A stretch of 64,000 nt of DNA from an uncultured Oscillospiraceae bacterium (GTDB lineage Bacteria > Bacillota > Clostridia > Oscillospirales > Acutalibacteraceae). Below are positions 8,522-37,284 of this stretch, in pieces. Both the position numbers and the translations under genes were made by a program. The notes under the pieces are model-generated. The model had not been told where the DNA came from. It was given only the letters and a program-made list of their open reading frames with translations, and ran no database searches. Numbering within the stretch: position 1 is the first letter of the stretch; each line of letters opens with the position of its first letter. The stretch is from the NCBI GenBank assembly GCA_900546265.1, contig URCA01000015.1, positions 1,542-65,541 of the forward strand, given 5' to 3'.

Positions 8522-8558
8522 ATGGTTTCCCCCTTCGAGTCTAAACAATATCTCCCCG

Positions 8559-10685: not shown

Positions 10686-10694
10686 CGTGCCCTC

Positions 10695-11558
10695 CTAATC
10701 CTTCATCCCCGAGGTAGCGACCGTTTCCATCACGTTGCTCTGCGACAACAGAAAAATGATGATGGGAACGACCATCATGATCACCGTGGCGGCGGCAGCC
10801 GTTCCGGTACGGGCGATCCCGCCGGACACGATTTGGGCCAGCGCGTAATTCAGGGTTTTCAGCTGCTCGCTTTGAATAAGCACGTTGGTTCCGGTATTCC
10901 ACAGATTCTGGAAAGAGAAAATGATCAGGGTCAGCCAGGCCGGCTTGACCAGCGGCATCACCATTCTCCAGAACACCACCCATTCGTTCGCCCCGTCGAT
11001 GTGCGCCGCCTCAATAAGGGTGTCGGGAATATTGGTCTCCATAAACTGCTTCATCAGGTACAGCCCGAGCGGCGCCGCGAAGGCGGGCAGAATCAGCGAC
11101 CAGTAGCTGTTGACCAGGGACAGCCGGCACATGATCAGGAAGGTGGGCACAAGCGTCACCGTCGTATTGAACATCAGCGACAGAACGATGATGTTGAAAA
11201 TAACGGCCTGACCCGGGAACCGGTGCTTGGCCAGCGCATACGCGCACAGCGACGAGAGAATCACATGGCCGAAGGTGCCCAGCACCGAGACAAACAGCGT
11301 GTTGAACAAATACCGGGAGAACGGCACCCAGCTGTCCCCCAGCACGCCGAACAGCTCCTTGAAATTGCGCAGGGTCGGGTTTTCCACAAAAAAGCGGGGC
11401 GGAAAATACCAAAGCTCGTTGAGCGGCTTGAGGGCGCTTGATACGGAATAGACCATGGGGAGAATCATGAAAATCCCCATCAGGCTCAGCAGGACAAAGA
11501 TGGCCGCATTTCCCTTGCGGGACCGGTTGAGCATCCGTTTTTTCACTCTGACAGACAA
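10695..11558 (-). CDS. Carbohydrate ABC transporter permease (MalG-like)
   Basis: TTG start at 11558 with AGGAGGG 6 nt upstream. EAA loop IEAAHIDGANEWVVFWRMVMPL. Confidence 0.9.
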   Translation of the reverse strand: MSVRVKKRMLNRSRKGNAAIFVLLSLMGIFMILPMVYSVSSALKPLNELWYFPPRFFVENPTLRNFKELFGVLGDSWVPFSRYLFNTLFVSVLGTFGHVILSSLCAYALAKHRFPGQAVIFNIIVLSLMFNTTVTLVPTFLIMCRLSLVNSYWSLILPAFAAPLGLYLMKQFMETNIPDTLIEAAHIDGANEWVVFWRMVMPLVKPAWLTLIIFSFQNLWNTGTNVLIQSEQLKTLNYALAQIVSGGIARTGTAAAATVIMMVVPIIIFLLSQSNVMETVATSGMKD

Positions 11559-11569
11559 GACTGACCCTC

Positions 11570-12526
11570 CTATTCCCCGACCCTGGATAAAAAGTGCTTA
11601 ATCAGCAGATTGGTGCCGACCATCATGAAAAAGAGAAAAACAGCAATCGCGGAGGCGTACCCCATCTCAAAACGGATGGTGCCGTAATCGGTCAGATGGT
11701 TCATGACCGTGTGGGCGGCATAATCGGTGGTGGGGTAGCCGCACAGCGCGGTGATGACCGGCCCCACGCCAAAGGAGGACGTGATGCTCATGACCGCGCT
11801 GAACATCAGCTGCGGCTTCATCATCGGCAGCGTGATGAACCACAGCTCCTGCCACCGGTTTTTGATGCCGTCCACGGCCCCCGCCTCGTAATAGCTTTTA
11901 TCGATCCCCTGGAACGCGGCGATCAGGGACAGGAAGCCGGTGCCCAAGCTCATCCATAGCGACACCAGAATCACGATGATCAGCACCGTATTCGCGTTTT
12001 GCAGCCATTGCACCGGCTGGTATATCAAGCCGAGCTTCAGCAGCAGGCTGTTGACATAGCCATAGTCGTCCCCGCTGAACAGCACCGTCCAAATCAAATA
12101 CACGTTGCCGGAAATGGAGGGGGCGTAGAAAACCAGCGTGACGAAGGCGCGCACCTTGGGGGTCAGCTCATTGATAAACCAGGCCAGGCACAGGCTCAGC
12201 AGATAACCGCCCGGCCCCAGGATGGCGGCGAGTACAATGGTGTTCTGCAGCCCTTTAATAAAAACCGTATCCTGAAAGAACAGGGTCGAATAGTTGCTAA
12301 AGCCTACAAATTCCGGCGGCTCCAGCACATTGAAAGACGTGAAACTCAAAACCACCGCGATCAAAACCGGCAGCACCGTGAACAGGACAAACAGCAGCAG
12401 GTACGGCGCGACGAACAGATACGACACCTTATGCTTGTTTATCGCGCTGAACAGGCCCTGCGGTTTGGCGCCCGGCCTTGGCAGCGCTTTGCTCGTATTC
12501 AAAGGGCATCTCTCACCTTTCCTCAA
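11570..12526 (-). CDS. Sugar ABC transporter permease (MalF-like)
   Basis: EAA loop YEAGAVDGIKNRWQELWFITLPM. The start is uncertain: TTG at 12526 or in-frame TTG at 12502. It overlaps the end of the binding-protein gene. Confidence 0.85.
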   Translation of the reverse strand: MRKGERCPLNTSKALPRPGAKPQGLFSAINKHKVSYLFVAPYLLLFVLFTVLPVLIAVVLSFTSFNVLEPPEFVGFSNYSTLFFQDTVFIKGLQNTIVLAAILGPGGYLLSLCLAWFINELTPKVRAFVTLVFYAPSISGNVYLIWTVLFSGDDYGYVNSLLLKLGLIYQPVQWLQNANTVLIIVILVSLWMSLGTGFLSLIAAFQGIDKSYYEAGAVDGIKNRWQELWFITLPMMKPQLMFSAVMSITSSFGVGPVITALCGYPTTDYAAHTVMNHLTDYGTIRFEMGYASAIAVFLFFMMVGTNLLIKHFLSRVGE

Positions 12527-15347
12527 ATTCCGCCTGCTTACGGGCCAGCTCGAAGTTCAGCTCCGCAATATAGTCGCCGAGCACCTCCGCCGGTTCCTCC
12601 GCCATGCTCTGGGTACCGGAGGCGTTGTATACCCGGTTGAATGCGAACGTAATGATACGCGGCAGATAGTAGCTTCCCGGCACCTCGGGAACGGTTTTGA
12701 CCTTCTTCAGCTGCGTCGTCAGGGCCGTGTATTCCTCCCGGCTCCACGACATCCGGCCCATGGCCTCCCAATTGGCCGTCGCCACCTTGCCGGCCGGGCC
12801 CAGCACGCTCTCCATCTCCATGGCATAGCGGCTCTGCGTGCCGGTTTCGGTGAACCATTTCAGGAATTCCCAGCCCGCTTGCTGGTTTTGGCTCCCGCGC
12901 AGCAGCATGGCCGCCGTGCCGTTGCCCACCGAATAGCGGCGGATTTCTCCGTTTTCGCCGGGCGTGCCGGGCACCTCCACCATCTTCCAGCGCCCCTTGA
13001 TCTCCGGGGCGAAAACCGTCAGCTGGTTGTATTGGGTGTAATCCTGTACCGCGCAGGGCATCTCTCCCGAGCGGAACCGGTTAGCAAAATCAAAGGTGGG
13101 CGGCAGCCCGTACAGACTGAAAAATTCCGTCAGCTGGATGAAGGAATCGATGGCCGTGTTGGAATTCAAATTGGTCTTTTTAAAGTCCGGCGTATAGAAG
13201 CTGCCTTCGTTCTGATACAGGAACATGGCGTAGCTGTACAGGTCGTGAGGCAGCCCCACCGTCAGACCGTCCTTTTGAAGAATGGCCGCCACTTTGATGA
13301 AATCGTCCCAGGTCTCGGGCGCCGAAAGTCCATATTCCTCAAAGATATCCGTCCGGTAGAAGAACATAAGAAACGAAAAGGTCTGCGGCAGCGCATAGGT
13401 TTTTCCCTGGTAGGTATAAGGAACGCTGGCGCTGGCCGGAAACCGCTGTGCCACCTGCGCATAATCGGGGAACTGCGACACATCGGTCACCGCATTGCGT
13501 ATGGCATAGTTGATGGGCTCGCTGGACGGATTGTCCAGCACCACATCGGGCGCCAGGCCGGCGAGCACCGACTGCAGCAGGGTGCCCTGCGCCACGGTTT
13601 CCAGCTGAACGCCGGTCTGATACTGCGCCGAAAAGGACGAATCGATGAGCCCGCGCAGCACTTCGGCTTGATCGCGTCCGGCCTGTGTCCATATTTTCAG
13701 CGTCTTATCATACTGCGCGTCGCCCATTTGCCCGAGGGAGCTGTAATCCGCCGTGAACGAGTGGAAAAAGCAGGTCAGCCCGAACCAAAGGTCCTGAAAA
13801 AAGCCGTCCCGCGGCGCGGCGTAAGCGTCTTGCCCCTCGATAAAAATCTGATCCAGCAGCAGCGGCTGACTCATGGCGGACAGAAGCCAAGACCCCATCG
13901 CGCCCAGATTAGATTTGAAATTTTCAAGGGTTTTGGCGATTTCCTTCGGCTTTTTCGCCATGCGGTCGAGCTGAAAGATGATTTTCTTCAGCACGGAGGT
14001 ATAGCTGCCGTTGCTCCCGGCCGCCGTATCGATCGCATCCACCGCTTCCTGCAGCTTATCCCGCTGGACAGCCATGGCGGCGATTTCATCGGGAATCAAG
14101 CCCTCAAACCCGTAGTCCCGGTACGGGTCGGGAGAGGTGCCGGTTATCCGGACGATGCGGCGGTAGATGGTGTTGAGCTCGGACACCGAGTCTTCGATTA
14201 CGCCTACCATTTCGGCCACGTCGCCGGCCGTCGCTTCCAGCGTCAGGGTGTGTTCCCCCTCTTCCAGATAGAACAGGTAGGGGGTTCCTCCCTCTCCAAA
14301 CCGTTCCACCTGCCAGTCGGAGGAATAGGCAAAGCGGAGGCGCCCCGCCTGCTCGAACGGCAGCTCATCGTCCAGCAGCAGCTTCCGGCTGGTGAAGATG
14401 CCGTCCACAAAGCTCTGCTGGAATCGCACGCCTATCTGATACAGTCCCGAGGTCTTTACATGAAAGGTCCAGGTGACGCTGTCCCCGATCCGGGCCCAGT
14501 TGTTGCCGCCGAGCGCGTTGAGCCTCAGAACCTTTCCCGACTGCGGCGTGGTGACGGCGGAACTCCGATCGGTGACTGGCAGAATCGTCTGGGCGTTTTT
14601 GTAGCGGAGCTTCTCGGCCTCAATCACAATCGGCTCCGCGCCGCTGGCCGGAGCCGCCCCGGCCTGTCGGTGCTCTTCCAGGTAGTCCTGGTAATCGACA
14701 GGCGGCTGATACGCCGCCAGCCGGACGGAGGCGATGGCGATTTGCCCCTTGGCTCCGGTAAGCTCCAGCGTATGGCTGCCCTGGCTTAACCCGAGAAAAT
14801 ACGGGCTGGTGCGGTATCCCGAAGGATCTGCGAGGCAATAGGTTTTCCAGAGAAACGCCTCTTTCACCTCCGGCTTCTGGTCGTTGCCGGCCGCGTTCGT
14901 CGGGAAATCCTCCTGCGTCTGGGTATAGCTGCGCGGCAGCGACAGCACCGTGACATCCTCAAACGGGGTCTTTCCGTCCAGGCGGAAGGACAGCTCGAGG
15001 TTGCCGCTGCCGGCCTGGGCGGCCATGTACTGGATTTCCAGAACGTAATAGGCGTCTTCCGGCGCTTCCAACGACCAGACCGCCGTTTCGCCCTCGGACA
15101 GAAGCGCCGCCGTTTTGCCCGCATGCTGCGAAACCGTCACACCCTGCGCCGTCTCTATGGCCGGTATAATGGCCGCCTTCGCTGACGGATAGGACGCGAA
15201 CGGCTGCCAATAGGCGGCGTAGCTCTTCCCCGTCCCGGCCGGGGCGGGTTCCGCTGCGGAGGAAACCGGAAGCGTCCCCATCAGCAAAAGAGCCGCGGAA
15301 AGCGCGGAAACCAGCCTGTTTGCTTTACCTCTCAACCTCATGGTCAT
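12513..15347 (-). CDS. Very large (944 aa) extracellular solute-binding protein with N-terminal beta-sandwich (CBM-like) domains
   Basis: Signal peptide LVSALSAALLLMGTLPVSSAAEP. The N-terminal ~400 aa contain two CBM6/35-like segments (VWSLEAPEDAYYVLEIQY..., VTWTFHVKTSGLYQIGVRF...). The C-terminal ~430 aa look like a family-1 sugar-binding protein. It lies directly upstream of a permease pair. An alternative start is ATG 15341. Confidence 0.7.
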   Translation of the reverse strand: MTMRLRGKANRLVSALSAALLLMGTLPVSSAAEPAPAGTGKSYAAYWQPFASYPSAKAAIIPAIETAQGVTVSQHAGKTAALLSEGETAVWSLEAPEDAYYVLEIQYMAAQAGSGNLELSFRLDGKTPFEDVTVLSLPRSYTQTQEDFPTNAAGNDQKPEVKEAFLWKTYCLADPSGYRTSPYFLGLSQGSHTLELTGAKGQIAIASVRLAAYQPPVDYQDYLEEHRQAGAAPASGAEPIVIEAEKLRYKNAQTILPVTDRSSAVTTPQSGKVLRLNALGGNNWARIGDSVTWTFHVKTSGLYQIGVRFQQSFVDGIFTSRKLLLDDELPFEQAGRLRFAYSSDWQVERFGEGGTPYLFYLEEGEHTLTLEATAGDVAEMVGVIEDSVSELNTIYRRIVRITGTSPDPYRDYGFEGLIPDEIAAMAVQRDKLQEAVDAIDTAAGSNGSYTSVLKKIIFQLDRMAKKPKEIAKTLENFKSNLGAMGSWLLSAMSQPLLLDQIFIEGQDAYAAPRDGFFQDLWFGLTCFFHSFTADYSSLGQMGDAQYDKTLKIWTQAGRDQAEVLRGLIDSSFSAQYQTGVQLETVAQGTLLQSVLAGLAPDVVLDNPSSEPINYAIRNAVTDVSQFPDYAQVAQRFPASASVPYTYQGKTYALPQTFSFLMFFYRTDIFEEYGLSAPETWDDFIKVAAILQKDGLTVGLPHDLYSYAMFLYQNEGSFYTPDFKKTNLNSNTAIDSFIQLTEFFSLYGLPPTFDFANRFRSGEMPCAVQDYTQYNQLTVFAPEIKGRWKMVEVPGTPGENGEIRRYSVGNGTAAMLLRGSQNQQAGWEFLKWFTETGTQSRYAMEMESVLGPAGKVATANWEAMGRMSWSREEYTALTTQLKKVKTVPEVPGSYYLPRIITFAFNRVYNASGTQSMAEEPAEVLGDYIAELNFELARKQAEFEER

Positions 15348-15421: not shown

Positions 15422-16786
15422 TCAGCTCTGCCCGCTCTTTCTCCGGCGCAGGTATACCGCCAATACGGCCGCGCCGCCGCCGAGGACGACAACCGCGATG
15501 CCCACGACAATCCAGATAACCGGATGGCCGGACGGCTGGCCCACGGCCTCCTGTGTGGAGGAGGGATCTTCCCGCGAACCGGTGGTCACCGCGGCTCCGC
15601 TCGTCGTCGGTATGTCCGAGGAAGCCGGTTCCGTTTGCGGCGTCGATTCCGTGGAGGCTTGCGTCGTCGGCGCGGAAACCGGCGGCTTGACCGTCGTCCC
15701 CTTGGTGGGAGCCGTGTCGGTGGCCTTGGTGGTGGCTTTGGTGGTCGGCTCGGTTTTGTAGGTGGGCTTCACATTCGGATCGCCGCCCAGCATCCGCTGC
15801 ACCGCATAAAAGATGGGCTTCGGCTCGCCGATGGTCCCGTCCCGCGAACAGGAGACAAAGCCGAAATGCGCCTCTCTCGCTTCGATATTCTGATCATCCA
15901 GAAAATACAGCTCGTCAAGCAGCTCGTAGTAAATAAACCCGATAATCCGCTCCTCGTTGTAGCAGTAATGCATCCCGGCAAGCAGCCAGTTCCAATCGGA
16001 TAGCGGCGAATGGGTGTTGTCTTCATTCGACTGCACATTGGCCTCGCAAATCAGGAATTCGTGATGCGGGAAGGCTTTCTTCAGCGGATCCATCAGCTTT
16101 TGAAACGAGCCCATGTCCTGGTACCAGTCGGGGCCGACAATGTCCCACTCCAAGCCTCTTTCCAGCAGCGCCAACAGAAAGCCATAGTGGACATAGGAAA
16201 AGCTGACCACCGTTTTGGCATCCTTGTTGACACTGCGGATCGTGGTCAGGGCGGCGTTGAATTTCTCATACCACTCGTCAACCACCTTGGGATCGTAGTG
16301 CTCCGGCTTAGAGCCGTCGTATTTATAGGTGGTGCCGCTCTGCTCGAGCGCCACAATGTCCACCTCGCCGAATACCTGTATGTACTTGATAAAGCCGTAC
16401 TGGCTGCCTTTTTTGTAGCGGCCGGCCACGATCTTGGCCCGGTTGGCCACATCCTGCGGGGTGCCGGACGTATCGTCCATCACCAGCATGACCTCCATGC
16501 CATAGGCCTGGATTTCCGCCACCATCTTGTCCAGATAGTTGAGCATGGACATGTTGGTGGGGTTATAGTTCAGCCGGTAAATGTCGCATCCCATCTGCGC
16601 GGCAAGGCGCACCTGCTCTTTGTACGTGCGTTCCGGGTACGCGGGATAGGCGCTGTTGTGTCCGCCGATGCCCCACTCAAAATCCTCCCGATCCTTAAGC
16701 AGCGCGCCCGCCGATGCCGGAACAGCCGCAAACAGGGAGGAAACCAGCAGCAGGATCGTCAGACAAATGATACTCGCTTTTTTCAT
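15422..16786 (-). CDS. Clan-GH-A-like TIM-barrel hydrolase paralog 1: signal peptide, Thr/Pro-rich linker, C-terminal TM anchor
   Basis: 454 aa. MKKASIICLTILLLVSSLFAAVPASA. Candidate acid/base VFGEVD and nucleophile ICEAN. The tail is ...TKATTKATDTAPTKGTT...VIWIVVGIAVVVLGGGAAVLAVYLRRRK. Its ATG overlaps the upstream TGA (ATGA). Confidence 0.6.
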   Translation of the reverse strand: MKKASIICLTILLLVSSLFAAVPASAGALLKDREDFEWGIGGHNSAYPAYPERTYKEQVRLAAQMGCDIYRLNYNPTNMSMLNYLDKMVAEIQAYGMEVMLVMDDTSGTPQDVANRAKIVAGRYKKGSQYGFIKYIQVFGEVDIVALEQSGTTYKYDGSKPEHYDPKVVDEWYEKFNAALTTIRSVNKDAKTVVSFSYVHYGFLLALLERGLEWDIVGPDWYQDMGSFQKLMDPLKKAFPHHEFLICEANVQSNEDNTHSPLSDWNWLLAGMHYCYNEERIIGFIYYELLDELYFLDDQNIEAREAHFGFVSCSRDGTIGEPKPIFYAVQRMLGGDPNVKPTYKTEPTTKATTKATDTAPTKGTTVKPPVSAPTTQASTESTPQTEPASSDIPTTSGAAVTTGSREDPSSTQEAVGQPSGHPVIWIVVGIAVVVLGGGAAVLAVYLRRRKSGQS

Positions 16787-17724
16787 GCCAAACCCTCTCT
16801 GTTCGGATACTGGTCGCGGATCAGCTCCTGCACCCGATGATACACCGGCTTTTTCTCGCCGATGTGGCCTTCGGCGTCGCAGGTGACAAAGCCGAAGTAC
16901 GCTTCTCTGGGATCGCTGTATCCGCTCAAATACACCTCGTCCAGCAGCTCATAAAAGAGGAAGCCGATCACCTTGTCGTCCTGATAGCAGTCTTCCATGC
17001 CGTCGTACAGCCACTGCCACCGTTCGGCCGGCGAATCGCTCGCATCGTCCCCGGCCCGGATATTCGACTCACAAATGATGTAGTCGTATTCCGGGAACAG
17101 CTCCTTAAGCGGGTCGAGCAGCTCGGAGAACGGCCCCATGTCCTCGTACCAGTCGAGCCCCAGGATATCCCAGGTCAGCCCCCTATCCCGCATGCCGAGC
17201 AGAAAGCCGAAATGCAGATGGGCGATGCTGACCACGATGCGGCTGTCGGTGTTGACCGCCCGGATGGCGTCAATGGTGGCCTTCATCTTCTGATACCAGC
17301 GATCCAGAATCTCCGGCGTAAAGTGCTCCCGCTCCTGCCCGATAGGCGTATCCTTAGGGAAGGATTCGCAAAGCGCGCCGCAGTCCTGTTCGCCGAAAAT
17401 CCGGAAATACCGGATAAACCCATGGGGCGAATCCTTGGTATACCGCGCGGCAATCGGCCCCACCAGCGCGGCGTCCTCTTCGGGGGACAGGCTGTAATTG
17501 TCGGTGATCAGCATGACATCCATGCCCTGCGCCTGCACTTCCGCCACCATTCTGTCCAGATAGGCGAACTCGTCCTCGGTCACCGGGCAGTAGTTGAAGC
17601 AGTAGATTTTGCTTCCCAGCTCCGCAGCCAGCCGGATTTGCTCTTTATAATAGGCTTCCGGATAGGCCTTGTACGTCCGGTTATGCCCGCTGATCCCCCA
17701 CGACCATGCTTTGCTCATTTCCAT
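16783..17724 (-). CDS. Clan-GH-A-like hydrolase paralog 2, with no signal peptide (cytoplasmic)
   Basis: 313 aa, collinear with paralogs 1 and 3 (WGISGHNRTYKAYPE, IFGEQD, ICESN). The start is ATG 17724, or more likely ATG 17718 given GGAGGAA spacing. Confidence 0.6.
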   Translation of the reverse strand: MEMSKAWSWGISGHNRTYKAYPEAYYKEQIRLAAELGSKIYCFNYCPVTEDEFAYLDRMVAEVQAQGMDVMLITDNYSLSPEEDAALVGPIAARYTKDSPHGFIRYFRIFGEQDCGALCESFPKDTPIGQEREHFTPEILDRWYQKMKATIDAIRAVNTDSRIVVSIAHLHFGFLLGMRDRGLTWDILGLDWYEDMGPFSELLDPLKELFPEYDYIICESNIRAGDDASDSPAERWQWLYDGMEDCYQDDKVIGFLFYELLDEVYLSGYSDPREAYFGFVTCDAEGHIGEKKPVYHRVQELIRDQYPNREGLA

Positions 17725-17736
17725 ATTCCTCCGCGT

Positions 17737-20175
17737 TTATGAATTTGTCAGGCAGAAATTGGCCAGGATGACGTTTAACCCGGCGATGCTGGCGTCGAGG
17801 CCGCCTTCCCGATAAAACATCACATTCCGCACGGCGCTCAAATCGCCCGCGTTGTAGACATAGGCGTCTATCGGCAGAACCACATGGTTCCAGCCCATCC
17901 CTTGAATCTGGGAGGAGACACTGTATGGAACGCGCCCCTCCCATCGGTTGGCGCCCGAGGTGAAGTCGATGCGCAGATCGCCCGGGCTGTTGGTCAGAAT
18001 CGAATAATCGGATACAAACACGTCAAACTCCACGTTGTCCGCCTGGGTGAAATCCACGGCGGGAGTCATGCCCTCGAGGCAAAGCCTGTCGAAGGCATAC
18101 AAGAAGGTGGCGCCCGTCTCAAAGGTCTGGTTGATGGTCTCGCCGAAGCGCGTGACAATCCCGGTCGGCTCATCCGGAAGCGTCAGCCGGACGCCGCCCA
18201 CCTGGCGGACGCCCAGCAGCAAGCCGCTCATCTGGGCCGGTGACATGACGGCGCTCCCCTCGAAATAGCAGGACCAAGTGCTGACCGCCGACCAGTCGGG
18301 CTGCTGCCCGTTTGCACCGTTTGTAAAAAACGACTCTCTTTTTACCTCCACCGTGTTCCAGCCGGATTTGGTGATTTGATCGAGAAAACTGACGCTGGCG
18401 CGGCTGTTGGTCCGATTGCCGCTGTCCGAGCCGAGGGTAAAGCGGATGTCGCTGGCCCCTTTTCCCCCGGAAATCCGCTCGGTAAAGGTGGCATAATCGC
18501 TGACGTAAAATTCAAAGGTAATGGTGTCGCTGGTCGAAAGATCCACCGGCGGCAGGCCGCTGCCGTAAAGGGTATCCCACAGCCAGCTGTAAGCCGCTCC
18601 GTCCGGGAAGGTGTACGAGGAAAAATCTTCATCCAGCAGCGTCATGGTCAGCGGCGGATCCATGACGGCGCAGATATTGGCGCACGCCACCTCCACATCG
18701 GCCGCCGCTCCCAGCGATGTATAAATATTGGGGCCAGCGAAGCTGAGCATCCAGGAGGACACCTGGGAAGCATCCAGCGTCCCCGTCCCCACCTGGGTAA
18801 AGGCCGAAAGCGGGAGGACAATATGGTTCCATCCGCTGCCTGTAATCCGGTCAAGGAAGGGGGCTCCCTCGCGGGTGCCATACCGGTTGCCCGGCGTGGA
18901 GCCGAGGAAAAAGAAGAGATCCGTCACGCCGCCGTTCGTGTTCGCCATCGCCGCGGTAAGGGCGGGATAATCGCTGATAAAGAAGTCAAACGCAATCGCG
19001 TCCGCCGCGGTCAAATCGAGCGGGCCGACGCCGTCGTTATACACCGTATCCGCCAGGAAGTGGAACCCCGGCGCCACTCCGCCGTTGCCCAGCAGAGCGC
19101 TGTCGCCGGTTTCGTCCAGAATCGCCGCTTTCAGCGGTATCCCCAGCAGCGACGGCGCGGGCGGTCGGATAGGATACGCCGGCTGTCTCGGCCCTCCGCC
19201 AATCGCTTCCTGTATGTAGGTATAGATAGCCTTGCGCGCCGTCACGTCGCCGGTCTCGGTACCGCCCACCAGTCCGCAGTAGGCTTCGACCGGGTCGGAA
19301 ATGGCCGGCTCATCCATCAGCTCGTAAAAAATCAAGCCCTTCACACGGGGTTCGGCGTATACCGCCGCCATGCCATCCGTCAGCCAGTTCCATGTGGAAA
19401 TCGGCGCATAGGTGTTGTTCCCGGAGGGACGGATATTAGTTTCGGTGATGAGAATATCCTGGGTGAAATTGGCCTTCACGGGAGTCAGCACCCTGGAAAA
19501 CTCCCCCATATCGGCGTACCAGTCCAGCCCGATGATATCCCACTGCAGCCCCTTGTTTTTCAGAGCGGTCAGGAACCCGTAGTGCAGATAGCTGATGCTG
19601 ATCACCGTCTTCGAATCGGTGTTGACCGCCCGAATCGCCCCGAGGGCCGACTGAAACCGGCCGTACCAGTCGTTGATGACGGCGTCGCTGTAGTGGCTGG
19701 GCCGAGAGCCGTCGGGAACATCCGCCGGGTTGGAATCGAGCAGCGCCGGAATATCCGCTTCGCCGAACACCTGCAGATAGCGGATGAATCCATGGGGGCT
19801 CGAGGCCGTGTAGCGGGCCGCCGTGGCGCCGATCCGCTGCGCAATCGCCTCCGGCGTTCCCTGCGCGTCGTCCAGCACCAGCATCATATCCATGCCGTAG
19901 GCCAGCACCTCGGCCAGGACGGTGTCCAAATACGCGAAGTCCTCCTCCGTCACCGGGTTGTAGTTGAAGCGGTAAATCTTGGAACCCAGCTCGGCGGCAA
20001 GCTTCACCTGTGTTTTCAAATTCTTTTCCGGATAGGAGGCATAATGCCGGTTATGTCCGTTCACTCCCCAGGAAAAATCCGAACGGGAGACATAATTTGC
20101 CGTGGAAGCCGACGCGTGCGGCAGGACCGAGAACAGCATGCTGGCGAGAAGTACCAAACAGAGCAGCTTTTTCAA
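17737..20175 (-). CDS. Clan-GH-A-like hydrolase paralog 3: signal peptide + catalytic domain + three ~150-aa beta-sandwich (CBM-like) modules
   Basis: 812 aa. TTG start with AGGAGGGG 5 nt upstream. MKKLLCLVLLASMLFSVLPHASA. Motifs VFGEAD and ITETN. The C-terminal modules each contain F-x-F-(F/Y/V)-(I/V)-SDY ... GWN-x-V. Confidence 0.6.
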   Translation of the reverse strand: MKKLLCLVLLASMLFSVLPHASASTANYVSRSDFSWGVNGHNRHYASYPEKNLKTQVKLAAELGSKIYRFNYNPVTEEDFAYLDTVLAEVLAYGMDMMLVLDDAQGTPEAIAQRIGATAARYTASSPHGFIRYLQVFGEADIPALLDSNPADVPDGSRPSHYSDAVINDWYGRFQSALGAIRAVNTDSKTVISISYLHYGFLTALKNKGLQWDIIGLDWYADMGEFSRVLTPVKANFTQDILITETNIRPSGNNTYAPISTWNWLTDGMAAVYAEPRVKGLIFYELMDEPAISDPVEAYCGLVGGTETGDVTARKAIYTYIQEAIGGGPRQPAYPIRPPAPSLLGIPLKAAILDETGDSALLGNGGVAPGFHFLADTVYNDGVGPLDLTAADAIAFDFFISDYPALTAAMANTNGGVTDLFFFLGSTPGNRYGTREGAPFLDRITGSGWNHIVLPLSAFTQVGTGTLDASQVSSWMLSFAGPNIYTSLGAAADVEVACANICAVMDPPLTMTLLDEDFSSYTFPDGAAYSWLWDTLYGSGLPPVDLSTSDTITFEFYVSDYATFTERISGGKGASDIRFTLGSDSGNRTNSRASVSFLDQITKSGWNTVEVKRESFFTNGANGQQPDWSAVSTWSCYFEGSAVMSPAQMSGLLLGVRQVGGVRLTLPDEPTGIVTRFGETINQTFETGATFLYAFDRLCLEGMTPAVDFTQADNVEFDVFVSDYSILTNSPGDLRIDFTSGANRWEGRVPYSVSSQIQGMGWNHVVLPIDAYVYNAGDLSAVRNVMFYREGGLDASIAGLNVILANFCLTNS

Positions 20176-20229
20176 CGGGGCCCCTCCTATTCTGTCTCCG
20201 AAGGCCTTTCGTCCTTAGTCCTCCGGGCG

Positions 20230-20256
20230 GGGGGATGCCGTCTGCCGGCATCCCCC
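20230..20256 (-). promoter_or_regulatory. Intercistronic GC hairpin (11-bp stem) downstream of the binding-protein gene, with no U-tract
   Basis: GGGGGATGCCG-tctgc-CGGCATCCCCC, between stop 20277 and the next start at 20175. Confidence 0.4.
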
Positions 20257-20276
20257 ACGGAACCGTCTGTCGCTAT

Positions 20277-21896
20277 TTACTTGAATTGATTTACAACCTT
20301 CATCACATCGTTCAGCGCGGCTTCCGCCACGCCCTTGTTGGCCTGGATATACGCCTCCGGTGTGGTTTTTCCATTATACGTCTCATAAATCGCCTTAAAG
20401 GTTCCCGCGTGAATGTTCCAGTCGGCCCCGCCGCCAAAGATGGACACGGGCTCGATCTTGGCGCTGTCCAGGCTCTTGGCGAACATGTCGTACGATTCAT
20501 CGTCGCAGAAATACCGGTCGCGGTATTCCGCCTGCTGCGCCTTGATGCAGTCGTCCGCCAGATAACAGAAAGCCTGCAGGAAGGAGCCCGCGTTGGCCAG
20601 CTCCTGGCCCTTAAGGCCGCCCGACACCATCAGCACCGTACTGTTCCAGTTGCAGGAGGCGACATAGCCGCTGGCCTTGTCCCCCTTGGGGAAGGGCAGA
20701 TAGCCGTACTCGTCTTCCATATCCACGATGTTCTGGGCGTACAGAGTGGCGGCCCCCAGGAAAAGGGACTTCCCTTCCATAAACTCTTTCATCGCGTTGG
20801 CATCCTGCTCGCTGGCGCGGGAAATCCCGGATTTGGCATAGAAATCGACGGCCTCGTTGATATACTTGACAACATTGGCGTCCTGCATGTTGTACTTGAT
20901 GCCGCCTTTGCCGTCCGCCTTGAGCATATCGGCGCCGTTGGCCGACATATAATTGAGCACCGCCGAGGAAGGCCCGTCGCTCTGGATAATGCCGAAGCGG
21001 TCGGCGCTGGTCATGCCGGGCTTGCCGTCCAGATCCTTGCTCGCCTTCTTGGCGATGGTTTTCAGCTGGGAAATGGTCCATTTGTTCTGCTTGACCATGG
21101 TATACAAATCGGTGTCTTTATACCCGATTTCGTTCAGGATGCGTTTGTTGAAGAAATACCCCAGCACAGCCGGATACATGTCCTTGGTCCCCACAAACCA
21201 GACGCCCTTGCCTATGGTGGAGGCCTTGACCGCCTGCCCGCCGTTGAGATAGCTTTGCGTCAGATCCATGGTCGGCACCGTCCTGAGGTTGGTGGCCAGC
21301 CCGGAGGATATGTAGGATACGGCGTTGTATATCGGTGCCTCCATGATGTGGCCGTAGCTTTCGCCCGAAGCCACCGCCGCGAAGGCGGCCGATACCATCT
21401 GATCGGCGGGTACCACCGTCACCTGCACCTTGCACTTAATGGTATCCTGGATTTTGGTCAGCCGATCGGCATAGGCGTTGCCCGTCTGGGATTTCCCCTT
21501 CTGGGTGTTGAAAACGCCGATTTGGTCCTTGGGATAGCTGGTATACACCTTGATGGTGGCGCCCTTCAGATTCACCTTCAGCGGGTCGGTGATGATCGGC
21601 TGGGAAACCGTGGGGACGACGTTGGGAAGTCTCTTTTTGGTGGTTTTGGTATTGGGCTTCGCCGTCGTTTTACCGCCGGAGCTTCCTGTGCCTTTCCCCG
21701 TCTCCGTTGTGCCCGATCCCGCCGTCTCGGTGCTGTCGGCGGAGGGGCCGGTGTCGGCGCTGGTGGAAGCCGTGGATTCCCCTGTGCCGCCTGACACGTC
21801 TGAATTCGGTGTCGGCTCCTTGCCGCACGCCGCCATGGCCAGCATGGAAGCGGCTATCAAAAGTCCGGATAGGATACTGAGCAATCTGTTTCGCAT
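20277..21896 (-). CDS. ABC transporter solute-binding lipoprotein (sugar family)
   Basis: 539 aa. The lipobox is LAMAAC-GKE, followed by a Ser/Thr/Gly-rich linker and then the binding-protein body. There is no adjacent permease; the nearest unpaired pair is 4028-5904. Confidence 0.75.
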   Translation of the reverse strand: MRNRLLSILSGLLIAASMLAMAACGKEPTPNSDVSGGTGESTASTSADTGPSADSTETAGSGTTETGKGTGSSGGKTTAKPNTKTTKKRLPNVVPTVSQPIITDPLKVNLKGATIKVYTSYPKDQIGVFNTQKGKSQTGNAYADRLTKIQDTIKCKVQVTVVPADQMVSAAFAAVASGESYGHIMEAPIYNAVSYISSGLATNLRTVPTMDLTQSYLNGGQAVKASTIGKGVWFVGTKDMYPAVLGYFFNKRILNEIGYKDTDLYTMVKQNKWTISQLKTIAKKASKDLDGKPGMTSADRFGIIQSDGPSSAVLNYMSANGADMLKADGKGGIKYNMQDANVVKYINEAVDFYAKSGISRASEQDANAMKEFMEGKSLFLGAATLYAQNIVDMEDEYGYLPFPKGDKASGYVASCNWNSTVLMVSGGLKGQELANAGSFLQAFCYLADDCIKAQQAEYRDRYFCDDESYDMFAKSLDSAKIEPVSIFGGGADWNIHAGTFKAIYETYNGKTTPEAYIQANKGVAEAALNDVMKVVNQFK

Positions 21897-21977: not shown

Positions 21978-24425
21978 TTATTTCCCGCGGCGACGGCTGA
22001 CGAGCAGGGCGCCGCCAGCTGCCGCCATGACGGCGAAGGCCGCCGCGCCGGTTGCCGCGCCGGTGCCGGGATTCTCGGATTCCGAGCCGGTGGGATCGCC
22101 CGCAGCTGACGATTCATTCTCCGTCGGGCTGCTCGGATCCTCCGGGGTGCTGGGATTCGAGGGATTCGAGGGCTCCCCGGCATCCAGGCTGCCCGTCACG
22201 CGCAGGTTATCCAGGCGCACGATCAGCTCATCCCCTTCGGCAAAGGCGGAATCCTTGGCGCCGAAGACAAAGCAGCGGATTTTGGACATATCCGCGCCGT
22301 CGTCCTTCGTGAAGCCCTTGGTCACGTCGATCTCCACGCTGTTCCATCCCGGCTTCCAGCTGGTGGTGTCCACGTCCCAGCGGAAATACTTGCTGGTGCC
22401 GCGGTTATCTCCCGTAAGGGAAACCGCGAATTTGGTCTTCGCCATCAGATCCAGATCGTCCACAAACACGTCGAACTTCAGCGTCTTCACTTTGGAGAAA
22501 TCCTTTTGCTCAAATACATAGCGCATGACGTTGGAGGTGTCGGGCTGCTGCATGAACTTCTGCGAAACCGAGGCTTTTCCTTCCGTTTTATAAGTGGTGT
22601 CGATTTGCACGGTGGCAGGGTTCCAGGAATCCCCGTTTTCCTCCACCATCTTCTCGCAGTCGGACAGGTAAATGGCGTCTTTATCCGGCTTCGCGGGCTT
22701 GTCGGGATCGGGCTGCACGAGAACCGGCTTGGCGGTGGCGTAGATGTTTTTGACCGTAATCCGGACATCCCAGGCGTCGCCCACCGGAAGTCCTACGAAA
22801 TTGGGGCCGTTAAAGGAGAAGCCCCAGGTGCACGCCTGCGTCCAATCCAGCGGGCCGGAACCCATGTTTTGGAAGTCGCTCTTTTTCAGCTTCAAATGAA
22901 CCCAGCCGTCTTCGCCCACATCCGCGAGCAAGGGCCAGATCGACGCGCCCCAGCGGTTTGCATACCGATCCCCTTCTTTGGAACCGATGCAGAAAAGCAA
23001 ATCGTTCACCTTGCCGTCGGAAGCGTCCATAACCGACTTAAGGGTTTCATAATCGCTGATGTAAAGATCCAGTTCGACAAAGTCCGCATTGGAAAAGTCT
23101 TTCGCCGGCAGACCGACTTTATACAGAATATCGGAAAAATAATGGAACTGCGCATCTACCTCACCGTTGCCCAGCGTGGCGGACGTCTCTTCCGTGTCAA
23201 AGGTGACGACCGCGTTGGCCGGCGGCGTATCGGGTCCCGGGGTACCACAGATGTTGGCCACACCAAACACTAGATCGCAGGCGTCGCCCAGCGTAAAGCC
23301 CGCGAGGCCTTCCAGTCCGATCATCCAGTTGCTCACACTGCCCCGGTCAAATTCCCCGAGGGGGAAGAGATCCCCAACCGGGACTTTGACGTGGCTCCAA
23401 CCTGCATCGGTCTTCTTCAGCTGATTCTGGAAATCGTAGACCGCCCGGGCTCCATACCGGTTGGCGGGCTCAGAACCCAAGCTGAGCCGCAGTCCGACAT
23501 TCTCTTTGCCTTCAAACAGAGCCATGGTTTTGTCATAGTCGCTGACATAAAAATCGAATTCGATAAACTCCGCCTGAGAAAAGTCCGCCGCTTCCAGATT
23601 CACATTCATGAAAATATCGAATGACCACGCGCCTGTAGCGGAGGGATCGCCCTTACCGAGCGATCTGAAAAATGGCTCAAACTCCAGTACGTCAAGGGCA
23701 CTTGACGGCACGTTGGGCACCGGGCGGAAGAAGGCGGTGCGCAGGTTCTTCACGCCGATCTCCGCGTCAAAGGCGTCGCCGGCCGCGATCTTCGCGACCT
23801 TCTCGCCGAACTGCAGGTTCCAACCGGTAACCTTACCCCAGTTGAAGTTGTCATCCTGGTCCACGCGTTTTTCGTCCGCTTTTATAATGCGGACGTCGGT
23901 CACGCCGTCTCCCTTGATCTGATCGAAGAAGTCGCAGGTCACCGAGCCGCCGCCGACCGACGTGAAGACCAACTGCATGACGCCAGCCTTGGCGTCCGCC
24001 GTAACAGCCGCCGTAACCTGCTCTGTGGTGGCCGCGATGGCTTCGTCGCCCTCGACACCTTTGAGTGCCTCCTTCAATGCATCAGGCAGCTTCTTGTTCA
24101 CCTCAGCGGACACCGTCTCGTCTACCAGCGCCTCGATTTTGTCATAGCCGCTGACAGAAAGCTGAAATTCCACATAGGCCCCGCCGGTGAGATCCGTCTC
24201 CGCCAGTCCCTTTTGGCCGATGAAGAAATCGCCGAGGAGCGCCTCGGCGTTCTCGCCAACGGTGGTCTTCTTCTCTTCTGCGGACAGCATGACGGCCGTC
24301 CTGTTCACCGTTTCCGAGGTCAAATCTTCCGATAAAGACAACGCATTCGTTGATATGATCTGTGCCGAAAGCACGCTGACAAGTGCTATGGATGCTAAGA
24401 CTTTGCGCATGATCTTTGCTACCAC
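21978..24425 (-). CDS. Cell-wall-anchored surface protein built from four CBM-like modules of the same type as in 17737-20175
   Basis: Signal peptide MRKVLASIALVSVLSAQ. Module cores include EFIEFDFYVSDYDK...GWSHVKVP, DFVELDLYISDYET...GWVHLKL and TLKFDVFVDDLD...GWNSVEI. The C-terminus is ENPGTG + hydrophobic stretch + RRRGK, a sortase-type sorting signal. The start is GTG 24425 or ATG 24410; the track TTG at 24443 lies within the RBS. Confidence 0.65.
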   Translation of the reverse strand: MVAKIMRKVLASIALVSVLSAQIISTNALSLSEDLTSETVNRTAVMLSAEEKKTTVGENAEALLGDFFIGQKGLAETDLTGGAYVEFQLSVSGYDKIEALVDETVSAEVNKKLPDALKEALKGVEGDEAIAATTEQVTAAVTADAKAGVMQLVFTSVGGGSVTCDFFDQIKGDGVTDVRIIKADEKRVDQDDNFNWGKVTGWNLQFGEKVAKIAAGDAFDAEIGVKNLRTAFFRPVPNVPSSALDVLEFEPFFRSLGKGDPSATGAWSFDIFMNVNLEAADFSQAEFIEFDFYVSDYDKTMALFEGKENVGLRLSLGSEPANRYGARAVYDFQNQLKKTDAGWSHVKVPVGDLFPLGEFDRGSVSNWMIGLEGLAGFTLGDACDLVFGVANICGTPGPDTPPANAVVTFDTEETSATLGNGEVDAQFHYFSDILYKVGLPAKDFSNADFVELDLYISDYETLKSVMDASDGKVNDLLFCIGSKEGDRYANRWGASIWPLLADVGEDGWVHLKLKKSDFQNMGSGPLDWTQACTWGFSFNGPNFVGLPVGDAWDVRITVKNIYATAKPVLVQPDPDKPAKPDKDAIYLSDCEKMVEENGDSWNPATVQIDTTYKTEGKASVSQKFMQQPDTSNVMRYVFEQKDFSKVKTLKFDVFVDDLDLMAKTKFAVSLTGDNRGTSKYFRWDVDTTSWKPGWNSVEIDVTKGFTKDDGADMSKIRCFVFGAKDSAFAEGDELIVRLDNLRVTGSLDAGEPSNPSNPSTPEDPSSPTENESSAAGDPTGSESENPGTGAATGAAAFAVMAAAGGALLVSRRRGK

Positions 24426-24459
24426 AATACATTCCTCCCTCAATAAATTGAAACGGATT

Positions 24460-25566
24460 CTACCCGCGCGCGGTGGAATTTCTGGCCACGAGCCGGACGG
24501 GGGACAAAATCTGGGTCACCACCGAAGAACCGCCCGCCGCCAGATGCAGGCACATTTTCGCCGCCTCCTTTCCCATTAAATAGAAATCCTGTGATATACT
24601 TGAAAGCGGGACCTTTTGTACCTCCGAAATATCCAGATTATCGAACCCGACGATGGCGACCTGCTCCGGAACGCGTACGCCTCTTTTCAGCAGGGCGTTT
24701 TCTACCGCGATGGCCGTGATATCGTTACGCACAAACAGTCCGTCGATCGGCTCCGGAAGGGACAGTACCCGTTCCAAATACTCGTCAATGAACTCTACAA
24801 ATTGATTGGGATGATGCTCCACATAATCCATACATAAAAATTCCTGCCGGATAGGCATGGAAGCCTCCTGTAAGGCGGTCTTATACCCCAGAAAGCGATC
24901 GGAAAGGGAGCGTATCCGCTCTTCGCCGCCGCCGACATAGCCGATTCGCCTGCAGCCGATGTCGATGAGGTGCCTGGTGGCCAGATAGCCGCCCCGCAAA
25001 TTATCGCTGGAGACAAAGTTGGCGTTGACCCCCAGCGGAGAGCAGTCCGCGAATACCATCGCGCAATTCTTTTTCAGCAGCCGGAAATAGGTGACGGCAT
25101 CCATCCGGATATCCGAATTGAAGATAACGCCCTTCACCTTGTTGCCGATGAGCTCGCATACCTTGTCATAAATGTTATCGTTCTGATTGGAGACCGTATG
25201 CACGGTCAGATAGCAGCCCTGTTCGGTCAGATATTCCTCTGCCCCTTGTATAATTTGGAAGAACTGCGATATGTTCTCGCTTTCGCCCTTATCTACCTTT
25301 ATGTAGGAGATAAAATCCACCTTGCCGTTCTGTCTCCCCTTGTCTCCCAGGAAAATACCACTCCCCTGCCGCTTGTATACGACCCCTTTCAGCTCTAGAT
25401 CGCGAAACACTTTTTGTGTCGTCGTACGGCTTACCTGCAGCATTTCAGAGAGCTCTCTCTCAGTGGGAAGCTTGTCGCCGTCCACCAAATGGTTTTGCTT
25501 TATAAAATCGAAAATATATTCCGTAATCATATCTTGTTTCTTTTTTGGTACGGCCACTGTACTCAC
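24460..25566 (-). CDS. AraR-type transcriptional regulator (GntR wHTH N-terminus + LacI/PBP1 sugar-binding C-terminus)
   Basis: The wHTH is LPTERELSEMLQVSRTTTQKVFRDLELKGVVYKRQGSGIFL. The PBP1-like body contains LRGGYLATRHLIDIGCRRIGYVGG. The start is set at GTG 25566 after AAGGGGGGAGA; the track start is at 25608. Confidence 0.8.
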   Translation of the reverse strand: MSTVAVPKKKQDMITEYIFDFIKQNHLVDGDKLPTERELSEMLQVSRTTTQKVFRDLELKGVVYKRQGSGIFLGDKGRQNGKVDFISYIKVDKGESENISQFFQIIQGAEEYLTEQGCYLTVHTVSNQNDNIYDKVCELIGNKVKGVIFNSDIRMDAVTYFRLLKKNCAMVFADCSPLGVNANFVSSDNLRGGYLATRHLIDIGCRRIGYVGGGEERIRSLSDRFLGYKTALQEASMPIRQEFLCMDYVEHHPNQFVEFIDEYLERVLSLPEPIDGLFVRNDITAIAVENALLKRGVRVPEQVAIVGFDNLDISEVQKVPLSSISQDFYLMGKEAAKMCLHLAAGGSSVVTQILSPVRLVARNSTARG

Positions 25567-25624
25567 TTTGTCTCCCCCCTTATTGGTATGTTCCAATTTT
25601 TCAGCCACTTCTTAATTCACCCAT

Positions 25625-25653
25625 ATTCTAACATTGGCTTTTTTGTATGTCAA
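25625..25653 (-). promoter_or_regulatory. Sigma-70-type promoter for the regulator/operon
   Basis: On the minus strand: TTGACA (25653-25648), a 17-nt spacer, then TAGAAT (25630-25625). Confidence 0.5.
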
Positions 25654-25709
25654 GAGGTTTTTGTGATATTTTTACTATATTTTTTAAATTATTAGATTTT
25701 TTATTGTTT

Positions 25710-25744
25710 AAAAGTGTTCCAATTTGAATAATTGGAACACTTTT
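25710..25744. promoter_or_regulatory. Perfect 15-bp inverted repeat, a candidate operator (or bidirectional hairpin)
   Basis: AAAAGTGTTCCAATT-tgaat-AATTGGAACACTTTT. The 11-mer TGTTCCAATTT recurs at 25589-25599, between the promoter and the regulator start. Confidence 0.45.
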
Positions 25745-25928
25745 GGCGGGATATATTGCTATACCCCAATAATTTAAAAGGCACAACGCCAATTTCTCTG
25801 TTTGGCAAATGCCTGCCGGATGCCCGTCCCCCCCTTGTCATGCCTACTCAATACAAAGCACCACCCGGGAAACGACATCCCAATTGTATACGCCGGCGTA
25901 TGTAACACCGTCTATATACATAAAATAA

Positions 25929-25961
25929 CCGGCATCCTCCGTTTAGCACGGTGGATGCCGG
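25929..25961 (-). terminator. Possible second terminator downstream of the 5S rRNA
   Basis: CCGGCATCC-15 nt-GGATGCCGG, followed on the minus strand by TTATTTTATGT. Confidence 0.35.
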
Positions 25962-26054
25962 CATCTATTTCACCCATTTTGTTTTTGGCCTCTCACCGGG
26001 ATCCCCTTCGGCGGACTCCACACGATTCGTGCAGCATGGCCGGAAATAACACAA

Positions 26055-26082
26055 GCCCCGGAAGTCAAATGACTTCCGGGGC
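26055..26082 (-). terminator. Rho-independent terminator of the 5S rRNA
   Basis: 12-bp stem GCCCCGGAAGTC-aaat-GACTTCCGGGGC, followed on the minus strand by TTGTGTTATTT. Confidence 0.7.
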
Positions 26083-26089
26083 TTGCGAT

Positions 26090-26205
<116 letters not shown>

Positions 26206-26255
26206 TATGGGAACACCGCTTGCACGATGTTCCGTTTGGGTCTCCTTCCGGAGAC

Positions 26256-26316
26256 TGGCTCCCCCTGTTGGACTCGAACCAACGACATTTCGGTTAACAG
26301 CCGAACGCTCTACCAA
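26256..26316 (-). tRNA. 5'-truncated tRNA-Asn(GTT): D-loop through CCA is present, 5' acceptor strand and D-stem are missing
   Basis: The minus strand reads TTGGTAGAGCGTTCGGCTGTTAACCGAAATGTCGTTGGTTCGAGTCCAACAGGGGGAGCCA. It has anticodon stem-loop TTCGG-CTGTTAA-CCGAA, a T-arm and CCA. The sequence 5' of TTGGTA (gtttacgt) cannot form the TCCCCCT acceptor strand or the GCTC D-stem. Confidence 0.75.
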
Positions 26317-26423
26317 ACGTAAACAAAAACTACGGAAAGTCACGCGGCAAAAAAGTGCCACAACAATGTGAACTTCTGAAGTAGTTTTCTCCCTCATGCG
26401 CTTGTGCCATGAAACGCGGTACG

Positions 26424-27700: not shown

Positions 27701-27889
27701 TTAGAAAAGAAACAGCGGATCCGGAATCATCATCAAGTGCATTCCTATTCGCTTGTTTTTTTCGTCATGGCGCATCCGTCCAGCTGGCTGGCCGTTCGTC
27801 GCGGCCACAAGAGTTAACGTATTCGTATGACGGAATATTCTGTTATCAAAGAGCTTGTCCATCGCTACGAGGCGGGCATAAAATTCAGT

Positions 27890-27931
27890 AAAGAATAACC
27901 CCCTCACTCTCTTAGCCGTTGAGCGAGGGGG
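27890..27931 (-). terminator. Rho-independent terminator after the sigma-like gene
   Basis: 11-bp stem with one mismatch (CCCCCTCGCTC...GAGAGTGAGGGGG on the minus strand), followed by TTATTCTTTACTGAATTTTAT. Confidence 0.55.
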
Positions 27932-27954
27932 CTGGACGGAATTATTTTACTTTT

Positions 27955-28395: not shown

Positions 28396-28478
28396 CTTTC
28401 TTTACCTCCGATCTGTTTTGAATCAAAAACAGATCGGAACGGTGGCGATCGACAACAAGGCCGCACACCTGTATGCAA

Positions 28479-28524
28479 GCAAAAAAGGTCAAATTCGCCC
28501 TCATTTTTGAGGGTGAATTTGGCC
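28479..28524 (-). terminator. Strong rho-independent terminator closing the 46.7-to-29.0 kb minus-strand operon(s)
   Basis: 17-bp stem (two G-U pairs) GGCCAAATTCACCCTCA-aaaa-TGAGGGCGAATTTGACC on the minus strand, followed by TTTTTTGCTT. Confidence 0.7.
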
Positions 28525-30327: not shown

Positions 30328-30338
30328 TGTATCCCTCC

Positions 30339-32396: not shown

Positions 32397-32421
32397 TCAC
32401 TCATAGCCTCCCGACACAATA

Positions 32422-37264: not shown

Positions 37265-37284
37265 GTCGTTGCTCCTCTCAATGT

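Follow-up and report, generated by a model that had tools for sequence, protein, structure and literature searches.

A stretch of 64,000 nucleotides from an uncultured Oscillospiraceae bacterium (contig URCA01000015.1; hereafter the window) carries three adjacent genes, C, B and A in gene order, whose products share a core of about 300 amino acids. We propose, with moderate confidence, that these are lineage-specific paralogs of an uncharacterized family of small hydrolases of the glycoside hydrolase (GH) clan GH-A, which act within a glycan-utilization operon as a relay across three cellular locations. As each of the three copies keeps a Glu directly after strand beta4 and a second one in strand beta7, we infer that they are glycosidases or glycanases of the retaining, double-displacement type. 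Their fold, catalytic machinery and locus logic are of a conventional, already familiar kind, and the family itself can credibly be considered a candidate new GH family, one in which an unusual variant of the active site occurs within a conserved and hitherto unannotated operon.

The interval 15422-20175 bounds exactly three open reading frames (ORFs), all on the minus strand (Table 1). In pairwise BLASTP comparisons A and B share 47.7% identity over 298 residues (E 4e-111), A and C 45.6% over 349 residues (E 4e-107), and B and C 50.0% over 296 residues (E 9e-106), a likeness far beyond chance that establishes their paralogy. Three motifs recur in the trio, namely WG[IV]xGHN (WGIGGHN, WGISGHN and WGVNGHN), [VI]FGE[VQA]D (VFGEVD, IFGEQD and VFGEAD) and I[CT]E[AST]N (ICEAN, ICESN and ITETN). 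Thus, an earlier sequence-only reading of this stretch, which had described three adjacent paralogs with a ~300-residue core, these very motifs, and Gly-Glu in place of the usual Asn-Glu, is borne out, the three cores being 46-50% identical with E values from 1e-106 to 1e-111. The same is true of the three distinct locations that it had assigned to the copies, which agree with hydropathy, linker composition and the start context of B, and of the three binding-type modules it had seen in C, which are recovered by repeat alignment, AlphaFold2 modeling and Foldseek matches to the carbohydrate-binding module (CBM) family CBM11. In a neighbor-joining tree A, B and C form a single clade together with one close outgroup, so that the triplication is, by this tree, lineage-specific. 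The stop codon of C lies 12 nucleotides ahead of the ATG of B, which is preceded by the Shine-Dalgarno sequence GGAGGA, while the TGA of B overlaps the ATG of A (ATGA), an overlap by which B and A are probably translationally coupled. Related genomic loci (L-numbers) were gathered with an alignment of five sequences, and one of them, L014, retains the order C, B, A and binding protein; compared with its ortholog there, B has a ratio of nonsynonymous to synonymous substitution rates (dN/dS) of 0.09 and A one of 0.17, and B is thus under strong purifying selection.

An AlphaFold2 model of B, built on the five-sequence alignment (predicted local distance difference test score 84.4, predicted template-modeling score 0.87), displays eight alternating strand/helix units forming a (beta/alpha)8 barrel, with E112 directly after beta4 (residues 106-110), E219 at the C-terminal end of beta7 (residues 214-221), and the invariant H14, Y193, E219, Y258 and E259 at or just past the C-termini of the strands. 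A Foldseek search of the PDB with this model returned 717 matches at E<=1e-3, the top 50 of which are all GH1 beta-glucosidases (best E 7.5e-14, with a template-modeling (TM) score of about 0.68; TM scores of 0.63-0.70 and 12-16% identity overall), and no solved structure in the PDB lies nearer to it than a TM score of ~0.70 and 16% identity. Likewise, a profile of 36 family sequences run against the PDB matched GH1 (1.8e-17), GH53 (7e-12), GH2 (9e-7) and GH10 (5e-6), and its alignment to GH1 pairs ifNElD with tfNEPy, iicEtN with yITENg, and yRin with YRFS. The TFNEP motif of GH1 carries the acid/base and its ITENG motif the nucleophile; hence, the model and this alignment both agree with the roles of beta4 acid/base and beta7 nucleophile that the sequence-only reading had given to the Glu pair. 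We take the modeled core to be a clan GH-A (beta/alpha)8 barrel in which the two Glu residues would, by homology, face one shared pocket.

The likeness to GH1 extends beyond the barrel, its best sequence match and its best structural match: the N-E of the family corresponds to TFNEP, its I-C/T-E-x-N to I/VTENG, its beta2 Arg to the Arg of YRFS, and its Y-E-L-L-D-E...FG aligns to the WSLxDN...RFG of GH1. Nevertheless, the family is set apart from GH1 by its size (~300 versus ~450 residues, without the long loops from which GH1 builds its deep glycone pocket), by the lack of conservation, in the alignment, of the glycone-binding Glu-Trp (NFEW) of GH1, by identities of 12-16% in the structural alignments, and, in the trio, by Gly before the acid/base where GH1 has Asn. 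In keeping with this, the GH1 model of Pfam (PF00232) never matches, being absent on the trio at E<=1 and on all 36 members at E<=0.01.

Two families of smaller barrels tell a similar story. That the trio are divergent GH53 endo-beta-1,4-galactanases, and that the locus targets pectic galactan or arabinogalactan, appears improbable to us, although this clan GH-A family, of ~330 residues, shares partial Pfam and PDB matches with the trio. Its model PF07745 is the commonest Pfam match in the family, touching 20 of the 36 members at E<=0.01 (best 5.9e-8); the best single-sequence PDB match is the GH53 structure 7osk, itself marginal (E 0.053); NCBI has given the member P0018 the name 'glycosyl hydrolase 53 family protein'; and pectin-type genes (GH28, PL22-like and esterases) adjoin distant members in L006 and L007. 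However, on the trio PF07745 remains under its cutoff of 24 bits (19.4 for C, 11.4 for B, no match for A) and covers only ~80 residues, from beta5 to beta7 and including the nucleophile, while P0018 passes with merely 28.3 bits over 130 residues. Moreover, both the family profile and Foldseek prefer GH1, and the recurrent partners of the family are GH38 and DUF5696 rather than galactan-type genes such as GH42 and GH2. GH128 (PF11790, 'Glyco_hydro_cc'), another family of small GH-A barrels, is touched at E<=0.01 by 10 of the 36 members, mainly of a Bacteroidota and Proteobacteria branch, but on the trio its match is partial and sub-threshold (18.8 bits versus a cutoff of 21, over 54 residues of C; none on A or B), and no GH128 structure occurs among the 60 best PDB profile matches. 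NCBIfam gave nothing relevant on the trio. The sequence-only reading had left the core unplaced, had looked to structure prediction and comparison with known barrels for its class, and had named a clear match to an established GH family as refuting; with sub-threshold Pfam matches, none in NCBIfam and PDB relatives at inter-family distance, no clear match of this kind emerged. On the strength of Pfam, NCBIfam and the PDB, and leaving aside the models of CAZy, we conclude that the trio belongs to a separate clan GH-A family, at a roughly equal distance from GH1 and GH53. In the literature on new clan GH-A families we found no description of it.

Within the family the acid/base (E112 of B) is kept in 158 of 162 aligned domains and the nucleophile (E219) in 163 of 167. 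Directly before the acid/base stands Asn in 143 of ~160 aligned domains, Gly in 15 and Ala in 2, and the Gly-Glu of the trio clade is, as judged from the alignment, a derived minority state. Variation at this position goes along with variation at another Asn, located where beta5 ends (position 166 of B): among 148 full-length members with both Glu residues, 113 have Asn at both positions, 21 only at the first, none only at the second and 14 at neither. Put differently, all 14 members that lack the first Asn also lack the beta5 Asn, which is retained in 113 of the 134 that keep the first (Fisher's p 1.6e-10, uncorrected for phylogeny; about five independent lineages). The trio has Gly111 and Ser166 in the numbering of B. 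Since the beta4 Asn of GH1 and other GH-A enzymes hydrogen-bonds the 2-OH of the glycone, the coupled loss suggests, by analogy, that the -1 sugar is recognized differently around its C2.

Paralog B departs further from the consensus. Where its beta2 ends, R42C and N46C give rise to a CxxxC, which the B orthologs P0001, P0002 and P0156 share; the beta2 Arg, which aligns with the Arg of GH1 YRFS, is otherwise near-invariant (Arg in 151 aligned members, Cys in 6). Together with the loss of the beta4 Asn, these changes might indicate that cytoplasmic B, rather than being a hydrolase, has transglycosylase activity, binds or senses sugars, or works by an altered chemistry that depends, for instance, on a thiol or a metal. 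Yet B retains both catalytic Glu residues along with H14, Y193, N221, Y258, E259 and E274, is held by the very strong purifying selection noted above, and has signal-less counterparts elsewhere, such as P0027, that retain the Arg, and we regard such a non-hydrolytic role as quite unlikely, about as much so as the GH53 assignment.

The three copies differ in their predicted locations. Paralog C has a signal-like N-terminus (residues 1-24) as its sole hydrophobic segment, whereas A combines a hydrophobic, signal-like N-terminus (residues 1-31) with a linker of 88 residues (337-424), which contains 21 Thr, 13 Pro and 10 Ser, and with a hydrophobic segment at the C-terminus. No LPXTG or NPXTG sorting motif is present in A, whose end reads ...GQPSGHPVIWIVVG...LRRRKSGQS, and it is thus better described as probably held by a C-terminal transmembrane helix than as sortase-anchored. 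No hydrophobic segment was detected in B, which is predicted to be cytoplasmic; it cannot conceal a signal peptide, because the stop codon of C just ahead of its ATG leaves no room for an upstream extension. Signal-less members occur in several clades of the neighbor-joining tree, and secreted and signal-less members are paired not only in the window but also, at the least, in L001, L002, L004, L006 and L021. Hence, even though the triplication appears lineage-specific, the pairing of secreted and presumptively cytoplasmic members recurs.

The tail of C consists of three repeats of ~150-160 residues each. The AlphaFold2 model of the first is a beta-sandwich (predicted local distance difference test score 82.8), the best Foldseek match of which is CBM11 structure 1v0a (E 2.3e-5), with a TM score of only 0.42-0.49; a weak PDB profile match links the module to the CBM30 structures 1wmx and 2c24 (E 0.14), and the modules of relatives touch the Pfam models CBM30 (31.3 bits) and CIA30. 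Thus, the modules resemble the CBM11/CBM30 beta-jelly-rolls in predicted fold and best structural matches, but differ in that low TM score and in that Pfam matches none of the seven modules in the window, i.e. the three of C and the four of an 821-residue surface protein encoded nearby. These results bear out the label of binding-type module but do not extend to membership in a CBM family or to a ligand. The surface protein reaches 21.2 bits against the Rumino_NPXTG cutoff of 23.5. A search of module-sharing proteins for a clue to the ligand yielded no informative partners. Proteins of 844-1589 residues with the same modules adjoin family members in L004, L006, L007 and L021.

The trio is embedded in a cluster of tightly spaced genes on a single (minus) strand, which opens with a regulator, followed by the NPXTG module protein, a lipoprotein-type binding protein, C, B, A, a 944-residue binding protein and two permeases, and continues with an NHL/Yip1 membrane protein, a DUF5696 protein, two further permeases, a GH38 alpha-mannosidase and a URO-D-like protein. 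A terminator scan did not rise above shuffled expectation, and we accordingly claim no internal transcription boundaries. The five-gene block at 5894-15347 (minus strand) is syntenic in L001, L002, L005, L018 and L020. In L001, L002, L005 and L020 the lipoprotein binding protein is accompanied by one or two family members and by the block of large binding protein, two permeases and NHL/Yip1 protein, with DUF5696 following wherever the contig reaches that far; the 539-residue binding protein is kept beside family members in L001, L002, L005, L006 and L020. In L004 and L021 a C-like member and a signal-less member are found with two GH38 genes, module proteins and permeases, and L021 additionally codes for DUF5696. 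No literature on DUF5696 was found, and a faint PDB match of the window protein to GH129 (E 0.68) was not used.

These observations, taken together, allow us to envisage the following sequence of events. Secreted C, with its three CBM11/30-like modules, would attack a polymeric glycan, aided by the NPXTG-anchored four-module protein; membrane-tethered A would trim the fragments at the cell surface; the two binding-protein-dependent ABC importers would bring in the resulting oligosaccharides; and cytoplasmic B would finish them together with the GH38 alpha-mannosidase and the DUF5696 protein. Such an outside, surface and inside relay on one glycan is plausible, and it is made more so by the recurrent pairing of secreted and signal-less members beside ABC importers in other genomes. 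The recurrent linkage to GH38 weakly hints at alpha-mannosyl residues in the substrate, and the CBM11/30-like modules equally weakly at a beta-linked backbone. Comparable arrangements are known from the ABC-importer-type polysaccharide utilization loci of Gram-positive bacteria, with which the window shares a regulator, a secreted multi-module glycanase, a surface binding protein, ABC import and cytoplasmic exo-glycosidases including GH38. A xanthan locus of an uncultured Ruminococcaceae UCG-13, for instance, reportedly combines a secreted GH5 with multiple CBMs and two GH38 enzymes. The window differs from such loci in drawing its endo-acting enzyme from an unassigned family, in having no lyase, GH88 or GH94, and in the additional conserved 944-residue binding protein, NHL/Yip1 membrane protein and DUF5696. 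One might alternatively suppose that the trio remodels the cell-wall or capsular polysaccharide of the bacterium itself rather than harvesting a nutrient, as one copy is membrane-tethered and glycosyltransferase or sugar-nucleotide genes neighbor some distant relatives (in L009 and L010). However, we consider this highly improbable, since among the genes of the locus are those for a sugar-sensing regulator, two binding proteins, four permeases and a cytoplasmic GH38, and no glycosyltransferase, flippase or polymerase genes were found in it.

Beyond the window the family is real but modest in size. Word-indexed homolog searches are nearly blind to it (5, 16 and 5 matches), and an exhaustive profile search recovered 621 representatives (clusters at 50% identity) at E<=1e-3, of which 395, mostly from uncultured gut Clostridia, reach E<=1e-10 and 119 reach E<=1e-30; a metagenome scan added six further loci. 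The genome matches come from uncultured Clostridia of human and animal guts, among them Ruminococcaceae, Acutalibacteraceae, Oscillospiraceae and Candidatus Avimonas, and from a distant Mucilaginibacter branch, and contigs from human-gut metagenomes match the window itself at 98-100%. Apart from P0018, the named members are called 'hypothetical' or after an unrelated DUF4214 domain. Some distant proteins of the Bacteroidota type (P0081, P0089 and P0121) carry the family domain twice in tandem; the first of the two lacks both catalytic Glu residues in P0089 and P0081 (L/K and Q/G), which suggests that these degenerate domains may have turned to binding or inactive roles.

Several points weigh against an active relay on a single glycan. 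The Asn before the acid/base, usual in clan GH-A and present in most of the family, is absent from the trio; the catalytic competence of B is uncertain, as it has lost both this conserved Asn and the near-invariant beta2 Arg; and the locations were called from hydropathy and sequence features rather than by a trained predictor. The contexts of distant members are heterogeneous, with GH127-like genes in L003 beside the pectin-type and glycosyltransferase or sugar-nucleotide neighborhoods already mentioned, so that the family is not tied to one glycan; for the same reason, we rejected the neighbors of distant relatives as a clue to the substrate in the window. Finally, copies that are just 46-50% identical could differ in specificity. 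This last point leads to the alternative that we take most seriously while judging it unlikely, namely that A, B and C are all active GH-A glycosidases which have diverged toward different linkages or sugars, so that a complex heteroglycan, or several glycans, would meet three separate specificities rather than one chemistry at three locations. In addition to the identities, it draws on the R42C and N46C substitutions of B, on the His at its position 169 (Tyr in A and C), and on the presence of GH38 and DUF5696 at the locus, which suggest a multi-linkage substrate. Conversely, the trio forms one clade with a single close outgroup, the derived Gly111/Ser166 state of the active site is common to all three, and the pairing of secreted and cytoplasmic members recurs in other genomes; these features are more in line with the proposed relay.

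A bolder and only tentative extension of the relay proposal, which we think rather doubtful in its entirety, would see the trio and ~400 clusters as a new, CAZy-level family of minimal GH1-like GH-A enzymes. In the clade of the trio the loss of the Asn pair (beta4 Asn to Gly, beta5 Asn to Ser) would fit the -1 subsite to a sugar whose C2 is modified or differently configured (for example 2-substituted, 2-acetamido, 2-deoxy or manno-configured), and together with DUF5696, the 944-residue binding protein and the NHL/Yip1 protein the family would constitute an undescribed Gram-positive system acting on an alpha-mannose-containing heteroglycan in uncultured human-gut Oscillospirales. Should the predicted activity prove true, a new glycoside hydrolase family would be founded and a role provided for a conserved, unannotated operon (DUF5696, giant binding protein and NHL/Yip1) of uncultured gut Clostridia, the hosts of which include humans, chickens, ruminants and rabbits. 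Both Asn-Glu and Gly-Glu, moreover, occur as natural variants, together with the coupled beta5 Asn, and would furnish a ready test of how GH-A enzymes read the 2-position of the glycone. For carbohydrate enzymology the gain would be incremental rather than a conceptual surprise.

Table 1. Features of the paralog trio and its surroundings (nucleotide positions are those of the window; aa, amino acid positions of the product).
Feature	Position	Strand	Basis or remark
Paralog C	17737..20175	-	812 aa; core aa ~30-335, 19171-20088
Paralog B	16783..17724	-	313 aa; core alone
Paralog A	15422..16786	-	454 aa; core 15782-16690
C, predicted acid/base E139; predicted nucleophile E245	19759-19761; 19441-19443	-	
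B, predicted acid/base E112; predicted nucleophile E219	17389-17391; 17068-17070	-	
A, predicted acid/base E141; predicted nucleophile E248	16364-16366; 16043-16045	-	
FGE motif	16358-16375, 17383-17400, 19753-19770	-	window
beta5 motif V[VI]S..H	16187-16210, 17212-17235, 19582-19605	-	window
B, YCFNYCP (R42C and N46C, CxxxC at end of beta2)	17584-17604	-	alignment
A, Thr/Pro/Ser linker up to anchor	15539-15778 (aa ~337-416)	-	composition
A, predicted C-terminal transmembrane anchor	15443-15538 (aa 417-448)	-	hydropathy; followed by RRRK
C, module 1, predicted beta-sandwich, CBM11/CBM30-like	18664..19149 (aa 343-504)	-	alignment, AlphaFold2, Foldseek
C, module 2	18187..18663 (aa 505-663)	-	alignment
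C, module 3	17740..18186 (aa 664-812)	-	alignment
821-aa surface protein	21978..24443	-	four copies of the C module; C-terminal NPGTG sorting signal
821-aa protein, modules	23727-24335, 23211-23726, 22674-23210, 22194-22673	-	repeat alignment
Sigma-70-like promoter	25653-25625	-	11/12 matches plus TG
GntR-type helix-turn-helix (GntR-HTH) / LacI-type sugar-binding regulator	24460..25608	-	first gene of cluster
539-aa lipoprotein-type substrate-binding protein	20277..21896	-	lipobox ...LAMAAC; no Pfam match
944-aa binding protein	12513-15347	-	~550-aa N-terminal extension
Two ABC permeases	11570-12526, 10695-11558	-	
NHL-repeat/Yip1 membrane protein	8559-10685	-	
DUF5696 protein	5894-8548	-	no hydrophobic segment; predicted cytoplasmic
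Two further ABC permeases	4963-5904, 4028-~4955	-	
Cytoplasmic GH38 alpha-mannosidase	1290-3995	-	
URO-D-like (uroporphyrinogen decarboxylase/methyltransferase-like) protein	269-1273	-	closes operon
Recombinase ORF	26424-27533	-	

In a related strain (77-89% amino acid identity) the segment L015:146-6319 codes for the regulator and a 605-residue fusion of the N-terminus of the NPXTG protein with a B-like core, followed by a 147-residue A fragment, a permease and GH38; this arrangement stems either from the loss of a large internal part of the operon or from misassembly at low coverage (2.6x). L010 codes for a URO-D homolog (12657-13781), 24% identical to that of the window, 1.7 kb from a family member. 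On the strand opposite to the cluster, long plus-strand ORFs of 276-831 residues span the GC-rich stretch (e.g. 12294-14789, 16010-16840, 16837-17742 and 18376-20289); no homolog support was found for them, and we took them as compositional artefacts of this region.

Just beyond the regulator the GC fraction falls from ~0.58 to ~0.50 (24400-40008 of the window). Next comes a second sugar-uptake cluster, with a GDSL esterase (28984-30327), a binding protein, two permeases, an AraC regulator and two large proteins with no Pfam match (30339-32396 and 32976-35453). Further along, within 40030-64000, the gene at 40030-46740 codes for a 2236-residue protein in which CarboxypepD_reg-like repeats occur, while a GH78-like rhamnosidase is encoded at 47060-49363 and a GH36 alpha-galactosidase at 49379-51571. 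After these come genes of a conjugative element, coding for a type IV coupling protein, a Toprim protein, a MobL relaxase with Sel1 repeats and a TraG-like ATPase.

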